Shown: positions 22,050 to 61,557 of the stretch, piece by piece
Layout: each line of letters opens with the position of its first letter
Numbering within the stretch: position 1 is the stretch's first letter
NCBI GenBank assembly: GCA_035510735.1
Contig: DATKGN010000013.1
Span: forward strand, 128,596 to 192,595
Length of the DNA stretch: 64,000 nt
Direction: 5' to 3'
From: Patescibacteria group bacterium
GTDB lineage: Bacteria; Patescibacteriota; Microgenomatia; UBA10105; UBA927
Position numbers and translations under genes: made by a program
Notes under the pieces: model-generated
Told to the model about the DNA's origin: nothing
Databases searched by the model: none
Seen by the model: the letters and a program-made list of their open reading frames with translations, nothing else

Positions 22050-22436
22050 CTATTTCAATGCTAAAATCGCTTTATGCAGAACTTCAAGAGACAGAGTTGC
22101 GCAGCGCATCCGCGACGGAGTCAGTGTCGTCCCCAGCATTTCCGTAATATCCTCTGACGTTAATGAAAGTGCAGTTTTAACGTTCATACTCCTCACTTTA
22201 TCAGTAAGCATAGATGCGGAAGCCTGGCTTATCGCACATCCCTCTCCCGAAAACCGAATATCGGTAATTTCCTTTTTTTTATTTACGTTTATTTCCATAC
22301 TAATGCGGTCCCCGCACGTCACGTTGCCTTCTTCAATACTACTGTCCGGTTTTTGAAGATGACCGAAGTTATGAGGGTTTTTATAATGATCAAGGATTAT
22401 TTCGCGATATATATCCATAATGTTCTTCCCTGTCAT
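22050..22436 (-). CDS. sufU: Fe-S cluster assembly scaffold SufU/IscU (NifU N-terminal family)
   Basis: Conserved GDRISMEI, GCAIS and C-terminal Cys (MRCATLS) ligand positions of IscU/SufU. Confidence 0.8.
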   Translation of the reverse strand: MTGKNIMDIYREIILDHYKNPHNFGHLQKPDSSIEEGNVTCGDRISMEINVNKKKEITDIRFSGEGCAISQASASMLTDKVRSMNVKTALSLTSEDITEMLGTTLTPSRMRCATLSLEVLHKAILALK

Positions 22437-22569
22437 CCCCGACCTGCTTCGCCCATCGTAGCCTTGGCGAAGTTGGGATCGGGGATTGGTTTTTAGATTT
22501 AATCAAAATACATATCGATTCCTACCTGCCTACCTGCGCAGGCAGGAGCGGGAATGACAACGGATAGAT

Positions 22570-23821: not shown

Positions 23822-24130
23822 TTATATATCGATGAACACTTCGCCATTTTCTACCTTAACCTTGTATGAGGCAACATCTGTGGGTGCGGGAAGAGAAAGA
23901 ACTTTACCGCTTGTCATATCAAACTGTGCACCGTGGCATCCGCAGGTTACGACATTACCGTCCAAAAAACCATCAGTACCCAGCGAACACTGTTCATGAG
24001 AACACGTATCGTCAATCGCAAAAAATTCGTCGTCAATATTGGCTAGGGCTATTTTTTTTCCACCAAGAACGACGGTCTTTTTCATACCGCTCGGGAGATC
24101 CCTTACGTTTAGTGCTTTAGTAAATGCCAT
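23822..24130 (-). CDS. Rieske [2Fe-2S] ferredoxin
   Basis: CSH-x16-CGCHG Rieske ligand motifs. Confidence 0.8.
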   Translation of the reverse strand: MAFTKALNVRDLPSGMKKTVVLGGKKIALANIDDEFFAIDDTCSHEQCSLGTDGFLDGNVVTCGCHGAQFDMTSGKVLSLPAPTDVASYKVKVENGEVFIDI

Positions 24131-24137
24131 ACGATGA

Positions 24138-24779
24138 TTATATCGCCCTTTCGATTGTTTGCCAAAGGTCCTCTCTGAATTTTTGGTTATCTACCCGATC
24201 CAACGCGCTTTTCAAAAATCCGGAAACAATAAGCCGGGCTCCTTGAGCCTCGGATATTCCCCGGGTTTTAAGATACCATAACTCTTCGTCAGATACCGGC
24301 CCGACTGTTGCCCCGTGCGTACAACGGACATCGTTTGCAAGAATCTCAAGCGAAGGCTTACTTTCTGCATGTGCGTGCTCTGAGAGTAGAATGTTTTCAT
24401 TCCTCTGATATGCGTCGGTCTTTTGGGCATCTTTTTCTACTCGGATCCCGCCGTCGACAACACACTGTGCTTCATCATCAAGAACAGTTTTAATAAGAAG
24501 GTTGCTCGTGCCGCTTGGCCCCCCATGAATTTGCATCGTGTGAATATGTACTTGAGACTTCCCCGAGGCCACAATAATGCCGATAATCGTCGCGACCGCA
24601 TTACGCCCGGTTAACCTTACGGTAACGTCTGTATTAACAGATTTTGTATGAAGCGCCAATAATACCAGGGTTAAGTCTGAGTCTGCTGAAACGGTAAAAT
24701 TGTGCGTACTTTCACCGTCAGTAATATGTTTAATGACTATTTTCTTATCCGGTAGTGTTGACTCTTTTTTTGCTTTCAT
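24138..24779 (-). CDS. sufD: Fe-S cluster assembly protein SufD (short form)
   Basis: SufB/SufD beta-helix family; sits between sufB and the Rieske gene and lacks the SufB-specific N-terminus. Confidence 0.65.
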   Translation of the reverse strand: MKAKKESTLPDKKIVIKHITDGESTHNFTVSADSDLTLVLLALHTKSVNTDVTVRLTGRNAVATIIGIIVASGKSQVHIHTMQIHGGPSGTSNLLIKTVLDDEAQCVVDGGIRVEKDAQKTDAYQRNENILLSEHAHAESKPSLEILANDVRCTHGATVGPVSDEELWYLKTRGISEAQGARLIVSGFLKSALDRVDNQKFREDLWQTIERAI

Positions 24780-24859: not shown

Positions 24860-26275
24860 TCATCCAACTGAACCCTCCATCTGTAACTGTATTAATCTGT
24901 TCATTTCGACGGCGTATTCTAGCGGCAGTTCTTTAACGATCGGCTCAATAAATCCGTTCACGATCATCGATTCTGCCTGTGCTTTGGCAATCCCCCGGCT
25001 CTGTAAATAAAACAGTTGCTCGTCACCGATTTTTGATACCGTCGCCTCGTGTTCAATCTGAACACTTTGCTCATCAATTTTCATGGTCGGGTACGTATCG
25101 GATCTTGATGTCTCATCAAGGAGAAGCGCATCACACACGACTTTACTTTTCACATGTTTTGCGCCCGGATACACCTGCACTAGCCCCCGGTATGAAGTCC
25201 TTCCGCCCGATTTACTAATGGACTTTGAAATAATCTGAGAAGTCGTCTCTGAAGCCGCATGAATCATCTTCCCGCCCGCATCCTGATGCTGTCCACGACC
25301 TGCATAGGCAATGGATAATACTTCTCCATGTGCTTTACGGCCCATGAGATAGACGCTCGGATATTTCATTGTCAGTTTACTGCCGAGGTTGCCGTCAACC
25401 CACTCCATTATCCCTTCTTCCTCAACACGTGCGCGTTTCGTCACAAGATTGTAAACATTCGTACTCCAATTCTGAATAGTCGTATACCGAACACGCGCGC
25501 CCTTCTTAACAATAATTTCAACAACCGCACTATGAAGAGAATCAGTGGTATAAATAGGCGCCGTACAACCTTCAACATAATGAACGAAGCTTCCTTCGTC
25601 CGCGATAATAAGCGTCCGCTCGAATTGTCCCATATTTGCAGCATTAATGCGGAAGTATGCCTGAAGCGGTAAATCGACATGAACGCCCTTCGGTATATAT
25701 ACAAACGACCCGCCTGACCAGACACTGCTGTTTAACGCTGCAAATTTATTATCCGCCGGCGGGATAACGGAGCCGAAATATTGTTTTACAATCTCAGGAT
25801 ATTCCCGAAGTCCCGAATCCATATCGAGAAAAATAACGCCCTTTTTATGCAGAAGCGCATTTATACTCTTATAGACTACTTCTGATTCGTACTGAGCGCT
25901 TACTCCAGACAAAAACTTTTTTTCGGCCTCAGGGATGCCGATGCGGTCATAGGTATCTTTAATTTCAGCGGGCAGATCACTCCAAGATTTTGCTCTATCC
26001 ATTATCGGCTTGATGTAATAATAAATGTTATCAAATTGAATGCCAGAGAGATCTCCTCCCCACGTCGGAAGCTTTTTTGCAAGATAATATTGGTAGCTTT
26101 TCTCACGGAACGCAGTCATCCAAGCAGGCTCGCTCTTATGCCAGCTTATGTTCCGAACCACATCATTATCCAGACCCCGCTTCGACTTAAAGACGTAGTT
26201 CTCCTTCTTATGAAATCCGTATTTATACGTATCATCGATTATTGTCTTCATAATAATGCGCGAGGAGGCATACAA
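24860..26275 (-). CDS. sufB: Fe-S cluster assembly protein SufB
   Basis: About 465 aa in the SufB family. An alternative start at 26251 (MKTIIDD) is possible. The repeat element abuts the start codon. Confidence 0.9.
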
Positions 26276-26533
26276 TTTGCAGCACCGTCACGCGCCGGGA
26301 AATATCCCCTGTTCACGCGCTTTTGGTCGCCATAAAATTTAGATCCGGTCTTCTGTTCGCTCACGAAATAATGATAACTTGGTCCATTCTGTTCATCTCG
26401 TTCGCAAGTGAATCCGGACTAAATTTTATAGACTCCCCGCGCGACAATTCGCTCTATTCAATCAATATAACGCTAGCTTTGACGGATATCCCTGATCCTG
26501 AGATCCGGGATCTAAGGACGCACAAATTGCATG
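26276..26533 (+). repeat. Copy 1 of a roughly 260-280 nt structured intergenic repeat (candidate ncRNA or MITE-like element), inserted between sufC and sufB
   Basis: Near-identical flanks shared with 37267-37546 (AGCACCGTCACGCGC...TTTAGATCCGGTCTTC...GTGAATCCGGACTAAATTT...TAGACTCCCCGCGC...GACGGAT.TCCCTGATCCTGAGATCCGGGATCTAAGGACGCACAAATTGC) and a divergent central segment. Internal complementary segments sit at 26335-26348, 26414-26426 and 26505-26515. No intact ORF is shared by the two copies. Confidence 0.6.
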
Positions 26534-26537
26534 CCGA

Positions 26538-27356
26538 CTAAAGCGCAGGCAAATATTTTTCGTACCCCTCATCCTCAATCTCTTTTGCTAAATTTGCTTT
26601 CCCGCTTTTTACAATTTTCCCTTTAACGAGAATATGAACAACGTCGGGCCGCAGGTATTTCAGTATCCTCTGATAATGCGTAATGATAATGACGCCGGTT
26701 CCCCTTTTGGAAAGTAGCGAAATACCCCTTGCCACAACTTTCAGGGCGTCAACATCAAGCCCCGTATCGATCTCATCGAAAATCGCAAATTTCGGAGATA
26801 AGGTAAGTGCCTGCAGCATTTCTACCTTTTTCTTTTCCCCTCCTGAAAATCCGTCATGAATCCCGCGCGAAAGAAAACTCTCGTCAAGATTGAGTTCTGC
26901 AGCGTTCTTCTTTATAACGTTCATAAAATCCAGAATGGATATGCTTCCGCCGTTCCAACGTCGCGCCAAAAGCGGATTCTGAACATTTTTCTCTTTTGCG
27001 GCCGGCTTACTGCCGAATAATTCTTGATACGAAGTCCGGAGCAAATTTATGACGCTCACACCCGGAACGGCTATCGGGGACTGCAAGGCCAAAAATAGTC
27101 CCGCTTTCGCCCGCTCTTCTGTCGGAAGCAATAAAATATTTTTTGCATTAATAAGCACTTTGGAAAGCTTCTTATCGATTTCGTAGGCGGGGTGACCCAT
27201 GAGTGCATAAGCGAGCGTCGACTTACCGCTTCCGTTTGGCCCCATCACCGCATGAATTTCGCCGGAGGCAACCGAAAAGGATATACCGCTTAATATCTCT
27301 TTATGGTTTATGCTGGTATGAAGGTCTTTAACCGATAAAACGTCGTGACTCTGCAT
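26538..27356 (-). CDS. sufC: Fe-S cluster assembly ATPase SufC
   Basis: ABC ATPase with Walker A GPNGSGKST, signature FSGGEKK and Walker B. Confidence 0.9.
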   Translation of the reverse strand: MQSHDVLSVKDLHTSINHKEILSGISFSVASGEIHAVMGPNGSGKSTLAYALMGHPAYEIDKKLSKVLINAKNILLLPTEERAKAGLFLALQSPIAVPGVSVINLLRTSYQELFGSKPAAKEKNVQNPLLARRWNGGSISILDFMNVIKKNAAELNLDESFLSRGIHDGFSGGEKKKVEMLQALTLSPKFAIFDEIDTGLDVDALKVVARGISLLSKRGTGVIIITHYQRILKYLRPDVVHILVKGKIVKSGKANLAKEIEDEGYEKYLPAL

Positions 27357-37236: not shown

Positions 37237-37266
37237 ATTAATCGAATTTCGCGGAGAGGTGTATGT

Positions 37267-37546
37267 TTTGCCAGCACCGTCACGCGCAGGGAAAGATCCC
37301 ACTGTTCACGCGCTTTTGGTCGCTATAAAATTTAGATCCGGTCTTCAGTTCGCTCCCTTCGACTTCGCTCAGGGCAGGCACGGAATAGTTCGTTTACCCC
37401 GAGTTTATCGAGGGGCAAGTGAATCCGGACTAAATTTATAGACTCCCCGCGCAACGATTCCACCCCTGTTCAATCAACACCACCTCAAGCTTTGACGGAT
37501 GTCCCTGATCCTGAGATCCGGGATCTAAGGACGCACAAATTGCGCG
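37267..37546 (+). repeat. Copy 2 of the roughly 260-280 nt structured intergenic repeat
   Basis: Same conserved flanks as 26276-26533 in the same orientation, with a longer divergent core. Sits between convergent genes (CofE-like, and DsbD-thioredoxin). Confidence 0.6.
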
Positions 37547-37561
37547 CGAACAATGTATCAA

Positions 37562-39286
37562 TTATCCGAATGTAAATGCGTACAACTCCATATTACCGTC
37601 AAGAAATTCCAACTTTAACTCATGAGAGCCCGGATTGTTCAGTTTTATCAGACGATAAAGTCTATCTTCAACAACGGTAACAATTCCGTTTTGCACATCA
37701 TCTCCCGCATCATCTGCCGTTATCACATTCCCATCCAGATAAATGCGGAAATGCCCCGGCTGGCCGTTATTTGTTCTCATCACTAAAAATAACTGCCCCG
37801 CCGCGAATCGAAATGTAAGAAAAGAACCGGCTTTTGGCGTTGCATTTTCTCCCGACACATTCCAAGGGCCGGCAAGAGCAAAATAATCCTGGCCGATTGT
37901 CGATGGTGTTGTATACGTTATCTCCTTATCAGGAGTCACAACTTCAGGTGAAGCAAATCGTTCTAACCGGTTATACCCAATGTATGTCTCAGGCGTTTGA
38001 GCGTTTATATCATAGGTAGTATTGTGAACAGGCATGTTCGCGACGTTTACTCCCGTCTCAGCCAGCAGTTGCTGAATCATTTTCTCCGATTCATCGTAAT
38101 TACCCTCACCGAAGTGTGTTGAGCGGATTTTACCGTCTTTGTCAATGAAATATTTCGCCGGCCAATACTGATTGCTATACGCATTCCATGTGGCGTAATC
38201 GTTATCCTGCATAACGGGATATGTTATACCGAAATCGCTGATCGCTTTTGTCACATTATCGGCGTTTTTTTCAAATTCAAATTCCGGTGTATGTACACCG
38301 ATAATAACGAGTCCTTTATCGACGTATTTTTTGTACCACGATTCAATATACGGGAGCGTTCGGATACAGTTAATGCATGTGTAGGTCCAGAAGTCGACAA
38401 GAACCACTTTTCCGCGGAGTGATGCCATCGTAAGCGGCTTTGTATTAAACCATTTTCCGCCGGGAACGAGTTCCGGCGCCTGTGGATACATATTGAGCCC
38501 TTTCATGAGCTGGGCAATTGCGTTTGTACCGGTCGACTGTTGTTTCCGTTTGGCAAGAGCATCTTCAACTGGCGCAATATTCTCGAGGGCCGTGAGCCCT
38601 GATCCGTAGTTCGGAAATGTTGTAAGAATGTAATTTTGAAACGTCCGGTCCGCGTTAAAATATAATCCGACGGCGAGGAGAATCATCACAACACCGAAAA
38701 ACCGTTGAATAGTTGAAGAATTACTGATGAGCCACGGTACGCGATTGAGAAGACTTCGTCCTGCTATAAGAAGAAGAAACATCGGAATTGCCGTTCCTAT
38801 TGCATAAGACAACGTTATAAAAACAGAGCTTAAATCCACATTGTTGGTCGCGGCAAGTGCGATGACGGAAGCCAATATTGGACCGACACACGGCGTCCAA
38901 AGCAGTCCGAGGCTTAAACCCAATAGAATACCACCCCAAAACCCCGATTTCTGCGGACGGCTTGAGACGGTAGATGACAATTTTCCGAAAAGCCTTTCCG
39001 TCAGCTTTTGCACCTGTGGAACTAACAGGGCTACACCGAAGACGGCGACGATAATGATGGAAATAATCCTGAGCGCGTCGGGAGGAATGTTAAGTAATTT
39101 TACAATTGCCGACAACGCGAGAGTAAAAAATGTAAAACTCGCGATAAACCCGACGACTATTCCGGTCGGTCGTCTCTTACCCCCGCCGATACTACCCGAT
39201 AAAACAATCGGCAATACCGGTAAAATGCAGGGGGAAAGTATCGTAACGATTCCGGCTAGAAATGCGAAAATGATAAGAAGTATCAT
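37562..39286 (-). CDS. Thiol:disulfide interchange fusion protein: CcdA/DsbD transmembrane domain plus thioredoxin-like (TlpA/ResA) domain plus C-terminal beta domain
   Basis: N-terminal ILSPCILPVLP (DsbD/CcdA Cys motif), second TM Cys (WTPCVGP), then WTYTCINC thioredoxin CxxC. Confidence 0.75.
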   Translation of the reverse strand: MILLIIFAFLAGIVTILSPCILPVLPIVLSGSIGGGKRRPTGIVVGFIASFTFFTLALSAIVKLLNIPPDALRIISIIIVAVFGVALLVPQVQKLTERLFGKLSSTVSSRPQKSGFWGGILLGLSLGLLWTPCVGPILASVIALAATNNVDLSSVFITLSYAIGTAIPMFLLLIAGRSLLNRVPWLISNSSTIQRFFGVVMILLAVGLYFNADRTFQNYILTTFPNYGSGLTALENIAPVEDALAKRKQQSTGTNAIAQLMKGLNMYPQAPELVPGGKWFNTKPLTMASLRGKVVLVDFWTYTCINCIRTLPYIESWYKKYVDKGLVIIGVHTPEFEFEKNADNVTKAISDFGITYPVMQDNDYATWNAYSNQYWPAKYFIDKDGKIRSTHFGEGNYDESEKMIQQLLAETGVNVANMPVHNTTYDINAQTPETYIGYNRLERFASPEVVTPDKEITYTTPSTIGQDYFALAGPWNVSGENATPKAGSFLTFRFAAGQLFLVMRTNNGQPGHFRIYLDGNVITADDAGDDVQNGIVTVVEDRLYRLIKLNNPGSHELKLEFLDGNMELYAFTFG

Positions 39287-39376
39287 AAATTGTAATCTAC
39301 ATTACCATTTTACACTCATACACACACGAGTACAAACAAAATTTTATATATGTAATCTACATTATCGCGCAAAAAA

Positions 39377-39802
39377 TTGAAACGTAGTAGGATTAGATTT
39401 ATGACGACATACGCTTGGTATAAGAAACTCAAAAAACCGTCATTTGCCCCACCACCCTGGGTTTTTACACCTGTTTGGAGCGTCCTCTACATCATGATTT
39501 TTTTCACCTTTGGGTATGTGATGCTTCAATGGATAAGCGGAACACTGCCATTTCTTCTCATCCTGCCGTTTGTCGTAAATTTGATAAGCAATCTTGCCTA
39601 TACACCGATTCAGTTCGGACTGAAAAATAATGAAGCCGCACTTGTTGATATTTTTGTTATTGACGTGACTCTTCTGTGGGCTATGATCGGTATTTACCAA
39701 TATTATCCGTTCGTAACATATATCCTGATCCCCTATCTCCTGTGGATATTGTTTGCAACGATTCTTCAATCGACTATTACCTACCTCAATCGGAAAAAAT
39801 AA
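39377..39802 (+). CDS. tspO: TspO/MBR (tryptophan-rich sensory protein) family
   Basis: KPSFAPPPWVFTPVWSVLY signature and 5 TM helices. Confidence 0.8.
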   Translation: MKRSRIRFMTTYAWYKKLKKPSFAPPPWVFTPVWSVLYIMIFFTFGYVMLQWISGTLPFLLILPFVVNLISNLAYTPIQFGLKNNEAALVDIFVIDVTLLWAMIGIYQYYPFVTYILIPYLLWILFATILQSTITYLNRKK

Positions 39803-42740: not shown

Positions 42741-42783
42741 TTGACAAACGCAATTCAGTTGCATATAATAAATGCAACTGAAT
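42741..42783 (+). promoter_or_regulatory. Sigma70-type promoter (TTGACA-N17-TATAAT) overlapped by a perfect 12-bp inverted-repeat Zur/Fur-type operator
   Basis: -35 TTGACA at 42741-46 and -10 TATAAT at 42764-69. ATTCAGTTGCAT (42753-64) and ATGCAACTGAAT (42772-83) form a perfect inverted repeat with a 7-bp AT spacer, directly upstream of the Fur-family gene and znuABC. Confidence 0.65.
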
Positions 42784-42792
42784 AACATTTAT

Positions 42793-43221
42793 ATGACGTT
42801 TCCGCAAAAACACGACTGCACGAATGAACTACATGACGCAGACCTTAAAGTGACCCCTGCGCGCATCGGAATTCTCAGTGCGCTTGAAACAACGAAGCTG
42901 CCTCTCGATATATCAGATCTTGTCCGATACCTGAGTGATCATAAAATACAAGCGGACCGTGTTACCGTATTCCGTAGTATGAATGTCCTGTCGGAAAAAG
43001 GATTGGTTAAACAAATCCAATTTAATGAGGGAAAATTGCGCTATGAATATGCGGCAAAACCTGACCATCATCATTTCGTCTGCGAAAAATGCGGGATGGT
43101 TGAAGATATTTCCCAGTGCAATGTTGAGAAAATAGAAAAAGATTTACAAAAAACGAAAGGACTGCTCATCAGACACCATAGTCTCGAATTTTTCGGACTA
43201 TGTGCGAAGTGTCAGCAATAA
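42793..43221 (+). CDS. zur: Fur family metalloregulator, likely zinc uptake regulator Zur
   Basis: Fur-family DNA-binding helix and HHHFVCEKCG...CAKC metal sites. First gene of the Zn ABC operon. Start chosen at 42793 because the track ATG at 42772 lies inside the operator. Confidence 0.75.
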   Translation: MTFPQKHDCTNELHDADLKVTPARIGILSALETTKLPLDISDLVRYLSDHKIQADRVTVFRSMNVLSEKGLVKQIQFNEGKLRYEYAAKPDHHHFVCEKCGMVEDISQCNVEKIEKDLQKTKGLLIRHHSLEFFGLCAKCQQ

Positions 43222-59157: not shown

Positions 59158-59466
59158 CTACGCAAGGCTAGGCTCAGGATGATACTTTTTTAGATGAATT
59201 GTGTTTCCTGCAACAAGTGCTTCTTTCTTTGCCCGTGGCCATGTTTTGAGTTGGGTTTCCCTGTGCATTGCTGCTTTGCGAGAAGCGAAATGCTCCTCAT
59301 GTATTAATTCAACGGAATCAAAATACCGTACATATCGGGCTGATTTACTCCCCTTACTCTTATGTTCTTTGAGCCGTCGGGTCATGTTATTCGTCTGACC
59401 GGTGTAGAGCGTGTTTGCGGACGTGCGCAGGATATAGACGGTAAACGGTTTCTTCGTTCGTTTCAT
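59158..59466 (-). CDS. GIY-YIG nuclease domain protein (stand-alone, UPF0213-like)
   Basis: VYILRT...LYTGQTNNMTRRLKEH...R GIY-YIG signature. Confidence 0.75.
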   Translation of the reverse strand: MKRTKKPFTVYILRTSANTLYTGQTNNMTRRLKEHKSKGSKSARYVRYFDSVELIHEEHFASRKAAMHRETQLKTWPRAKKEALVAGNTIHLKKYHPEPSLA

Positions 59467-61486: not shown

Positions 61487-61557
61487 TGCGGGATCGTATA
61501 ATGGTAGTACGCATCCCTCTGGAGGATGTTATCTAGGTTCGAATCCTAGTCCCGCAG
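61487..61557 (+). tRNA. tRNA-Gln (anticodon CTG), no encoded CCA
   Basis: Manual fold: acceptor TGCGGGA/TCCCGCA (U1-A72 and G73, as in bacterial tRNA-Gln), D-stem GTAT/GTAC, anticodon stem CATCC/GGATG with loop CTCTGGA (U33, CUG), T-arm CTAGGTTCGAATCCTAG. Confidence 0.8.

Follow-up and report, generated by a model that had tools for sequence, protein, structure and literature searches.

What kind of element can lie between two genes of an essential operon and leave both of them intact? The question is raised by a window of 64,000 nucleotides from the Patescibacteria assembly GCA_035510735.1 (contig DATKGN010000013.1, forward-strand positions 128,596 to 192,595), in which a structured intergenic segment fills the space between the Fe-S genes sufC and sufB and recurs at a second locus. 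A first-pass annotation offered two explanations, a small family of structured non-coding RNAs (ncRNAs) or a non-autonomous mobile repeat resembling miniature inverted-repeat transposable elements (MITEs), and the evidence supports part of each without deciding between them: a family of copies, empty sites in relatives and a covarying fold were found, while alternative pairings, target-site duplications and a transcription unit of its own were not borne out. The reading preferred here, because it accommodates most of the facts, is that the element belongs to a family of structured interspersed repeats of ~300 nt, non-coding and non-autonomous, that is restricted to one lineage and has not been described before; the repeats would propagate via a folded single strand recognized by a factor encoded elsewhere and would be transcribed passively by the host. 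We give this reading about an even chance of being correct.

Two copies in the same orientation, at ~26252–26552 and ~37237–37561, were recovered by direct reading, by alignment and with a repeat finder.

26252..26552, minus strand: copy 1 of the family (family A), complete; it forms the whole sufC–sufB spacer, and the minus strand is the sense of the suf operon.
37237..37561, minus strand: copy 2; it lies in the spacer between the convergent stop codons of a F420-0:gamma-glutamyl ligase-like gene (plus strand) and a DsbD-thioredoxin fusion gene (minus strand).

The full extent was fixed by the likeness of these copies to each other and to a third copy, L007, described below, and each of the two fills its intergenic space end to end. 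The repeat had at first been outlined at about 260 nt for copy 1 and at 37267–37546 for copy 2; it is real, but both copies are longer. BLAST aligns copy 2 to copy 1 with an E-value of 5e-59, and a family hidden Markov model (HMM) matches the copies at 1e-92 to 6e-100, so their resemblance is beyond chance. The shared parts comprise a 5′ block of ~85 nt (26280–26362 versus 37272–37355, 93–95% identity), an inner block (26422–26450 versus 37432–37460, 90%) and a 3′ block of 56 nt (26475–26530 versus 37488–37543, 98%), with GTGAATCCGGACTAAAT and TAGACTCCCCGCGC as inner blocks common to both. The central 50–70 nt have zero similarity and are of unequal length. Both copies, their orientation, the shared blocks and the unrelated core had all been described at first reading, and all were found again. 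Relative to copy 1, copy 2 is short of ~14 nt of the 5′ arm of its closing helix. Neither the repeat finder nor the family HMM detected another repeat of comparable size in the window, which is compact (43.7% G+C) and counts the two element-bearing spacers among its largest gaps.

No conserved open reading frame (ORF) exists in the element, in agreement with the first-pass annotation: one-base indels between the copies shift every frame, and the short ORFs present are copy-specific. A type I toxin–antitoxin or small-protein gene does not match either, as frames are broken and the start codon differs or is missing between copies. A protein search with translated open frames of the core block, directed at spurious ORF calls over other copies, returned nothing.

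A 20-mer from the best-kept block, scanned as an exact pattern, matched once among 185,579 species-representative genomes. The match, L007, is a complete third copy in the metagenome-assembled genome (MAG) GCA_964385705.1, 62–67% identical overall to the window copies. The depositor's label for this genome is “uncultured Gammaproteobacteria”; its SufC is 92% identical to that of the window, which marks it as a sister species. The window SufC itself is identical to HUD20269.1, which is annotated as a Patescibacteria protein, and other close SufC homologues bear Patescibacteria or Gottesmanbacteria names. L007 is located in the spacer between a His_Phos_1 gene and an adenosine deaminase gene, between the stop codon of the former and the promoter of the latter, a locus that is not orthologous to either window site. 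The first-pass annotation had reserved the possibility of a chance duplication for the case that no additional copies existed; one does, at a non-orthologous locus of a sister genome. The occupancy of the three sites is as follows.

sufC–sufB: copy 1 in the window; an unrelated 153-nt near-perfect hairpin in the sister; overlapping genes or plain AT-rich spacers of ~100 nt in distant relatives.
3′ end of the F420-ligase gene: copy 2 and then the DsbD fusion gene in the window; in the sister, the gene abuts msrAB, without the element and without a DsbD-thioredoxin gene.
His_Phos_1–adenosine deaminase: L007 in the sister; an empty 39-nt spacer at the 71% homologue in a relative.

In the one relative with the empty 39-nt spacer, the stop codon leads straight to the promoter. 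Around copy 1, the flanking genes resemble the sister genome as far as 26553 and again from 26245. Dispersal over three loci in two genomes, with orthologous sites empty or otherwise filled in relatives, is the distribution expected of MITEs. At the level of species comparison, it shows an element that has evidently moved, or has at least been gained and lost repeatedly.

A second line of evidence comes from the fold. The consensus of the three copies, read on the minus sense, contains 90 base pairs in nine helices. Standard pairs form in 91.4% of its cells, against 32–45% when partners are slid by 1–3 columns, and 18 pairs are altered on both sides, against 1–5 in the slid controls; none of 500 shuffles matched the observed pairing values, and these statistics rest on three sequences, with small absolute numbers spread over helices 1, 4, 5, 6, 7, 8 and 9. 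L007, though 33–38% diverged, keeps standard pairing at 81 of the 90 consensus pairs, which is unlike the behavior of neutrally decaying copies. The covariation sought after the first reading is thus present in the form of compensatory changes. The principal parts of the fold are these.

26475..26526, minus strand: near-invariant 52-nt core block of copy 1, containing hairpin P2 at 26488–26519.
37488..37539, minus strand: the 52-nt core block of copy 2, with P2 at 37501–37532.
26520..26534, minus strand: 5′ arm of closing helix P1 in copy 1, GCAUGCAAUUUGUGC, a candidate terminal inverted repeat.
26268..26283, minus strand: 3′ arm of P1 in copy 1, GCUGCAAAUUGUAUGC.
26480..26485, minus strand: 5′ arm of helix P3 in copy 1, CCGUCA, pairing with UGACGG at 26285–26290; six of six base pairs are invariant in the three copies.
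26285..26290, minus strand: 3′ arm of P3 in copy 1, UGACGG, within the invariant GUGACGGUGCU.
26316..26443, minus strand: long hairpin domain of copy 1 (helices 6–9), with base, internal loops and bulges kept; its tip (~26358–26408) is unique to the copy and still pairs.
37309..37453, minus strand: long hairpin domain of copy 2; its tip (~37351–37419) is likewise copy-unique and pairs.

P2 is an interrupted hairpin, GUCC-UUA-GAUCC[CGGAUCUCA]GGAUC-AG-GGAC, stacked directly on P1, and its pairs are invariant across the three copies. P3 closes the inner junction and is followed by a small variable hairpin and then by the long hairpin, in which the base, a bulged U and the internal loops are kept. 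The tip of the latter is the variable core seen in the alignment: the copy-specific sequences fold as extensions of the same long hairpin in all three copies. No match to these tips was found elsewhere in the portion of the fetched DNA that was compared.

Sequence conservation is distributed unevenly over this structure. The 52-nt block is identical at 49–51 of 52 positions (94–98%) in every pairwise comparison and includes a 38-nt run that is invariant in the three copies, and the 3′ arm of P3 with its adjacent bases is conserved at 10 of 10 nt. Between species, identity amounts to ~78% in the arms of the long hairpin, 27–33% in the segment after the 52-nt block and 36–70% at the outer ends. 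The part constrained in sequence is therefore internal, and the ends are not so constrained. Judged from these substitutions, a single-strand fold and one internal sequence block are shown to be under selection.

Not every pairing proposed at first survived the third copy. The segment AAATTTAGATCCGG (26335–26348) had been given two alternative partners. Its pairing with CCGGACTAAATTT is real, constituting the base of the long hairpin, and is compensated in L007 (AACATTGAGATCCGG/CCGGACTCAATGTT). The alternative with CCGGGATCTAA (26505–26515) is unsupported, since the L007 substitution that is compensated in the main helix creates a mismatch there. Among the local hairpins, GATCC…GGATC is kept in all copies, while GGGAaataTCCC is missing from L007.

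The position of copy 1 within the suf operon is intimate. The last three codons of sufC and its stop codon (26538–26540) come from the element, and the window SufC ends in …EKYL-PAL*, where relatives end in …EKYL or …EKYIR. At its other end, the copy finishes immediately before an ATG at 26251–26249. This is the start assigned here to sufB, in place of the unlikely TTG at 26275 taken from the ORF list. Both suf genes are intact around the element, as initially stated. The gene order is sufC (encoding an ABC ATPase), sufB, a short SufD-like gene, a Rieske gene and sufS. In this unusual arrangement, a 213-residue SufBD-core protein (24138–24779) replaces full SufD and is followed by a 102-residue Rieske [2Fe-2S] protein (23822–24130) and then sufS; the same order occurs in the relative L029. 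Beyond sufS, at the end of the operon, a 213-nt spacer (22357–22569) folds strongly on the minus sense (-68.6 kcal/mol, z -4.1) into two G+C-rich hairpins that include the palindrome CCTGCCTGCGCAGGTAGGCAGG; the spacer may act as a terminator region or be a further structured element.

No promoter-like site facing sufB was found within copy 1. Expression of sufB would therefore need read-through of the element, unless an atypical promoter is at work. Across the copies, no conserved promoter or terminator was detected. In copies 1 and 2, a terminator scan was negative throughout the element and at its end, and its sole match in L007 was a weak site of 6 bp where the element begins; there is no U-tract of the kind that marks an intrinsic terminator. 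The separate transcription unit considered at the outset is thus unsupported.

On the preferred reading, the element would copy itself into new intergenic sites just downstream of stop codons by means of a protein supplied in trans. This protein would recognize more than double-stranded terminal repeats: its target would be the folded single strand, either single-stranded DNA (ssDNA) or RNA, most likely at the invariant hairpin block. After insertion, the element would be transcribed passively within the host mRNA, with copy 1 read through for sufB expression. It would presumably be tolerated by virtue of carrying no terminator and leaving the flanking frames and the sufB start codon usable.

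Several observations weigh against this reading. Only three full copies were reached. The exact 18-mer scan of metagenomes recovered no full copy, an absence that is weak given that the window's own copies were also missed there, and two of its matches (L009 and L010) were chance. Viral contigs gave zero matches and then three chance matches only, BLAST against phage and plasmid collections found no match, and nhmmer with the family HMM over ~260 kb of related DNA added no further copy. Strains show no presence/absence polymorphism, with 14 of 14 strain contigs holding the element at 100% identity. No target-site duplication accompanies any of the three copies, whose flanks were read directly, so the direct repeats sought after the first reading are absent; a degenerate TAYGAARA duplication considered at copy 1 matches at 8 of 12 positions, overlaps homologous coding sequence and is unconvincing. 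The search for terminal inverted repeats had a divided outcome. The imperfect 13–15 bp inverted repeat of P1 is present and shows subfamily-specific compensatory changes, with three pairs altered on both sides in L007. However, the similarity of the copies runs ~20 nt past it on both sides, so that it lies inside the ends, and copy 2 has lost part of one arm. The window ORFs for which Pfam gave a result include no transposase, integrase, reverse transcriptase, TnpB or IscB and no autonomous insertion sequence with shared termini; about a dozen ORFs lacked a Pfam match, a few were unscanned, and some were annotated via overlapping contigs. The core block is better kept than the ends, the opposite of what is seen in a classical transposase-driven MITE. 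The element lies in mRNA sense in all three informative cases, namely copy 1, L007 and a solitary hairpin in a gene of L011 (see below), and this orientation, together with the conservation of the core block, suits a functional RNA at least as well. Finally, a second family of hairpins occupies two of the same sites, which simple random insertion leaves unexplained.

This second family (family B) consists of long intergenic hairpins at L012 10814–10966, L044 1124–1236 and L045 849–947. Its members have in common the motifs GCTGCTCGC and CTAAGCTCGGRAAGCGATCT and are closed by an inverted repeat of the type GTCGTAACAAATTTTC/GAAAATTTGTTACGAC. In the sister genome (L012), the family is found in the sufC–sufB spacer, and in two other relatives (L044 and L045) in the His_Phos–adenosine deaminase spacer. 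The L012 and L044 hairpins align locally with z = 11.3, and that of L045 is a weaker, inverted relative. In L044, the -35 box (CTTGACG) of the promoter of the deaminase gene falls within the outer arm of the hairpin. In the sister MAG, the called SufB (L012 10893–12344, MVIINLLELKL…) starts inside the hairpin, whereas homology places its true start at an ATG at ~10967. At two spacers, then, family A is present in one genome and family B in another, while more distant relatives have neither. Other long structured insertions are uncommon in the window, for which reason chance is an improbable explanation of this co-occurrence. Possible causes are a shared target preference, replacement of one element by the other, or a small number of permissive sites. 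Kinship between the families, suggested by eye from their closing stems (CAAATTT…AAATTTG) and outer flanks, failed against shuffles (local z ≤3.3, no consistent orientation, end-segment p = 0.04–0.96). Insertion of a family A core into a local family B hairpin is rejected, as the outer parts of family A are common to copies at different loci.

Neither half of the original proposal fits in its plain form. A classical MITE acting as double-stranded DNA would account for the dispersal, but not for the conserved interior, the covarying internal helices and the missing duplications. A housekeeping RNA gene would account for the structure, but not for the shifting positions, the missing transcription signals and the damaged closing helix of copy 2.

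A functional structured RNA is the strongest competitor, a serious one though less probable than the preferred reading. A minus-sense read-through transcript would be processed to a stable RNA of ~290 nt, whose invariant hairpin block would be bound by a protein partner; each copy would then be a paralogous gene for such an RNA. Its role might be regulatory, for example, or that of a scaffold, either for a ribonucleoprotein or of the guide-RNA-like kind known from omega-RNA. The covariation, the conserved bulges and internal loops, and a 52-nt block that remained 94–98% identical while the rest fell to 62–67% are all in keeping with it. The strand evidence points the same way. Single-sequence folding of copies 1 and 2 yields z-scores of -4.4 and -4.1 on the minus sense versus -2.5 and -3.0 on the plus sense, and the alifold consensus energy is -67.3 versus -61.3 kcal/mol. 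On the minus sense, the three copies have 12, 7 and 6 G-U pairs versus 1, 7 and 0 A-C pairs, a count biased by the structure having been predicted on that sense. The minus sense is also the mRNA sense of both neighbors for copy 1 and L007 and that of the host gene of the L011 hairpin, and every copy begins within ~25 nt of the upstream stop codon. This asymmetry is nonetheless weak, as both strands of L007 fold equally well, which weakens the minus-sense assignment. An RNA gene would, furthermore, lack a promoter, a terminator and defined ends, and no partner gene stands beside any copy. At gathering thresholds, Rfam recognizes only two tRNAs in the window; at E<10, searches with both copies return just two matches, to eukaryotic families, that score far below threshold and are attributable to chance, and no HEARO or IS605-orfB motif. 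Copy 2 is short of one closing-helix arm, and a position that differs between sister genomes is unusual for a housekeeping RNA.

It is rather unlikely that the element is a relic or non-autonomous derivative of an ssDNA-moving element, such as an IS200/IS605-type PATE or a REP/RAYT-type repeat, or of an RNA-guided insertion sequence, with the hairpin as the site of transposase recognition or the whole element as a guide-RNA scaffold. The absence of target-site duplications and of clear terminal inverted repeats at the very ends is as expected for such elements, and an interrupted subterminal hairpin kept in sequence, conservation at the level of structure and consistent orientation are also favorable, as is a solitary copy of the hairpin elsewhere. 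The latter, 32 nt long with one mismatch to P2, was detected by the metagenome 18-mer scan in two overlapping contigs, L008 (1062–1135) and L011 (13590–13690). It lies in mRNA sense within an alpha/beta-hydrolase ORF of another genome, in a G+C-rich insertion of 22–25 residues relative to solved homologues in an alignment. The host genome is low in G+C and compact, and the insertion is among the two most strongly folding stretches of its locus. P2 may accordingly occur as a separate module, for which this single case is the sole evidence. A derivative of IS200/IS605 should nevertheless have a matching hairpin at its other end, and only P2 is conserved, GGGAaataTCCC not being kept in L007. No 4–5-nt target motif is conserved at the left flanks, no TnpA, TnpB or RAYT gene is present in the window, and the Rfam motifs of HEARO and IS605-orfB are missing, as is the GTAG head of REPs; the known copy number is also low. 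With respect to REPs and REPINs, P2 is 32 nt long, interrupted and begins with GUCC, and its 18-mer was found at only two loci beyond chance.

We regard as equally doubtful a more specific proposal, that the element is the RNA component of an undescribed mobile system of the Candidate Phyla Radiation (CPR). The 52-nt block would then be the handle for a protein acting in trans, the copy-specific tip or the flanks would carry locus-specific information as in a guide- or template-RNA-like scaffold, and the solitary hairpin within the hydrolase gene would be a footprint.

Far less probable is a cis-acting signal for the neighboring genes, such as an intercistronic processing or stabilizing structure, an attenuator or a terminator, duplicated for its usefulness at gene ends. 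The element always follows directly upon a stop codon, the suf mRNA must include copy 1, the predicted helix of ~27 bp formed by P1 on P2 could be a substrate for RNase III, and other relatives hold other hairpins at the same two spacers. The flanking genes, however, are functionally unrelated (suf; F420 ligase/DsbD; phosphatase/adenosine deaminase), and a cis-regulatory leader is not indicated, as the genes downstream differ (sufB; none, the genes being convergent; adenosine deaminase). No U-tract is present, close relatives do without the element at the same junctions, and a multi-helix fold of 300 nt with a sequence-invariant block far exceeds what such a signal needs. Least credible of all is a neutral segmental duplication with neither function nor mobility mechanism, which would suit the window alone, with its two like-oriented copies separated by 11 kb, but not a third copy at another locus of another genome, copies 1 and 2 that carry no flanking-gene sequence, compensatory changes with a conserved core block, or a hairpin core wholly different between copies, which is not an outcome of simple duplication.

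At copy 2, synteny with the sister genome breaks exactly at the element (window 37562–39802 versus L012 1–40). There, msrAB is convergent on the F420-ligase gene in the sister, and in the window its place is taken by the element, a gene for a DsbD-thioredoxin fusion of 574 residues and a TspO/MBR gene; copy 2 thus lies at the edge of an indel or rearrangement. Assemblers tend to break at repeats. Seven contigs (L002, L006, L031, L032, L034, L035 and L036), which are independent metagenome assemblies of the window strain, end inside the shared blocks (at window positions 26501, 37531, 37513 and 37294), so that in practice the element fragments contigs in MAGs of this lineage.

Elsewhere in the window, a 22-nt near-perfect palindrome, AAACGCAATTCAGTTGCATATA/TAAATGCAACTGAATAACATTT (42746–42790), straddles the start of a Fur-family regulator gene (42772–43221), which is followed by znuA-like ABC transporter genes; the palindrome is probably the operator of the regulator. 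A free-standing GIY-YIG domain protein of 102 residues (59158–59466, annotated via the overlapping contig L017) is encoded ~2 kb from a tRNA gene (61487–61557), and no link between it and the element was found.

A full-text literature search returned no description of interspersed structured repeats in Patescibacteria. Genomes of this group are small and tightly packed. Here, a 300-nt element has colonized an essential operon. The branched fold and near-invariant 52-nt block kept between species point to a partner acting in trans, which could be a transposase for the folded strand or a protein that binds RNA. Should complete genomes contain it in abundance, the element would serve as a strain-typing marker, account for assembly breaks in such MAGs and offer a route to a new mobility or RNA–protein system; if limited to three copies, it would be a curiosity.

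Comparison with known systems allows a number of them to be set aside. TIGR arrays are composed of tandem units with two spacers each and occur beside a Nop-domain Tas gene (PMC12045711); the present elements are single units with no neighboring Tas gene, which rules out such an array. Group I and group II introns are not indicated, given the lack of an Rfam match, the location of copy 2 between convergent genes and a size too small for group II. The core motifs of hammerhead and twister ribozymes are absent on reading of the sequence, and there is no array of the kind that would identify a CRISPR repeat.

Closer parallels exist among the structured intergenic or MITE-like repeats of bacteria, which include the Correia elements of Neisseria, ERIC, the pneumococcal BOX and RUP elements, and bcr1 of the Bacillus cereus group. 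Like these, the present element is non-coding, dispersed and intergenic, a class of sequence often found in operons or between convergent genes and co-transcribed with them. It likewise forms stable hairpins closed by inverted repeats and is present or absent at orthologous sites, and it shares with BOX and ERIC a modular build with variable internal segments. The known elements differ in being 100–170 nt long and having tens to hundreds of copies, most with terminal repeats and often with target duplications. In contrast, the element described here is ~300 nt long with a branched fold, is known in three copies with no visible duplication, keeps an internal 52-nt block best and exhibits covariation in its internal helices.

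The 32-nt hairpin within the L011 hydrolase recalls the Rickettsia palindromic elements (RPEs), small palindromic modules lying in frame in protein-coding genes. Here, however, there is one such case, the full 300-nt element is intergenic, and no relation in sequence is expected. REPs and REPINs, mobilized by RAYTs, are similar in being interrupted palindromes of 20–40 nt at the 3′ ends of genes, single or in larger hairpin composites; the present element has no GTAG head, was not seen in high copy number or with a RAYT gene, and is much larger than a REPIN. Lastly, although it differs from HEARO and omega-RNAs (of IscB, IsrB and TnpB) and from PATEs in having no Rfam match at E<10, no IscB, TnpB or TnpA in the window and no conserved flank motif, it resembles them in being multi-copy and mobile, with or without a protein gene, in forming an ornate fold in the range of ~150–300 nt, in lacking target duplications and clear terminal inverted repeats at the very ends, and in being apparently strand-specific.

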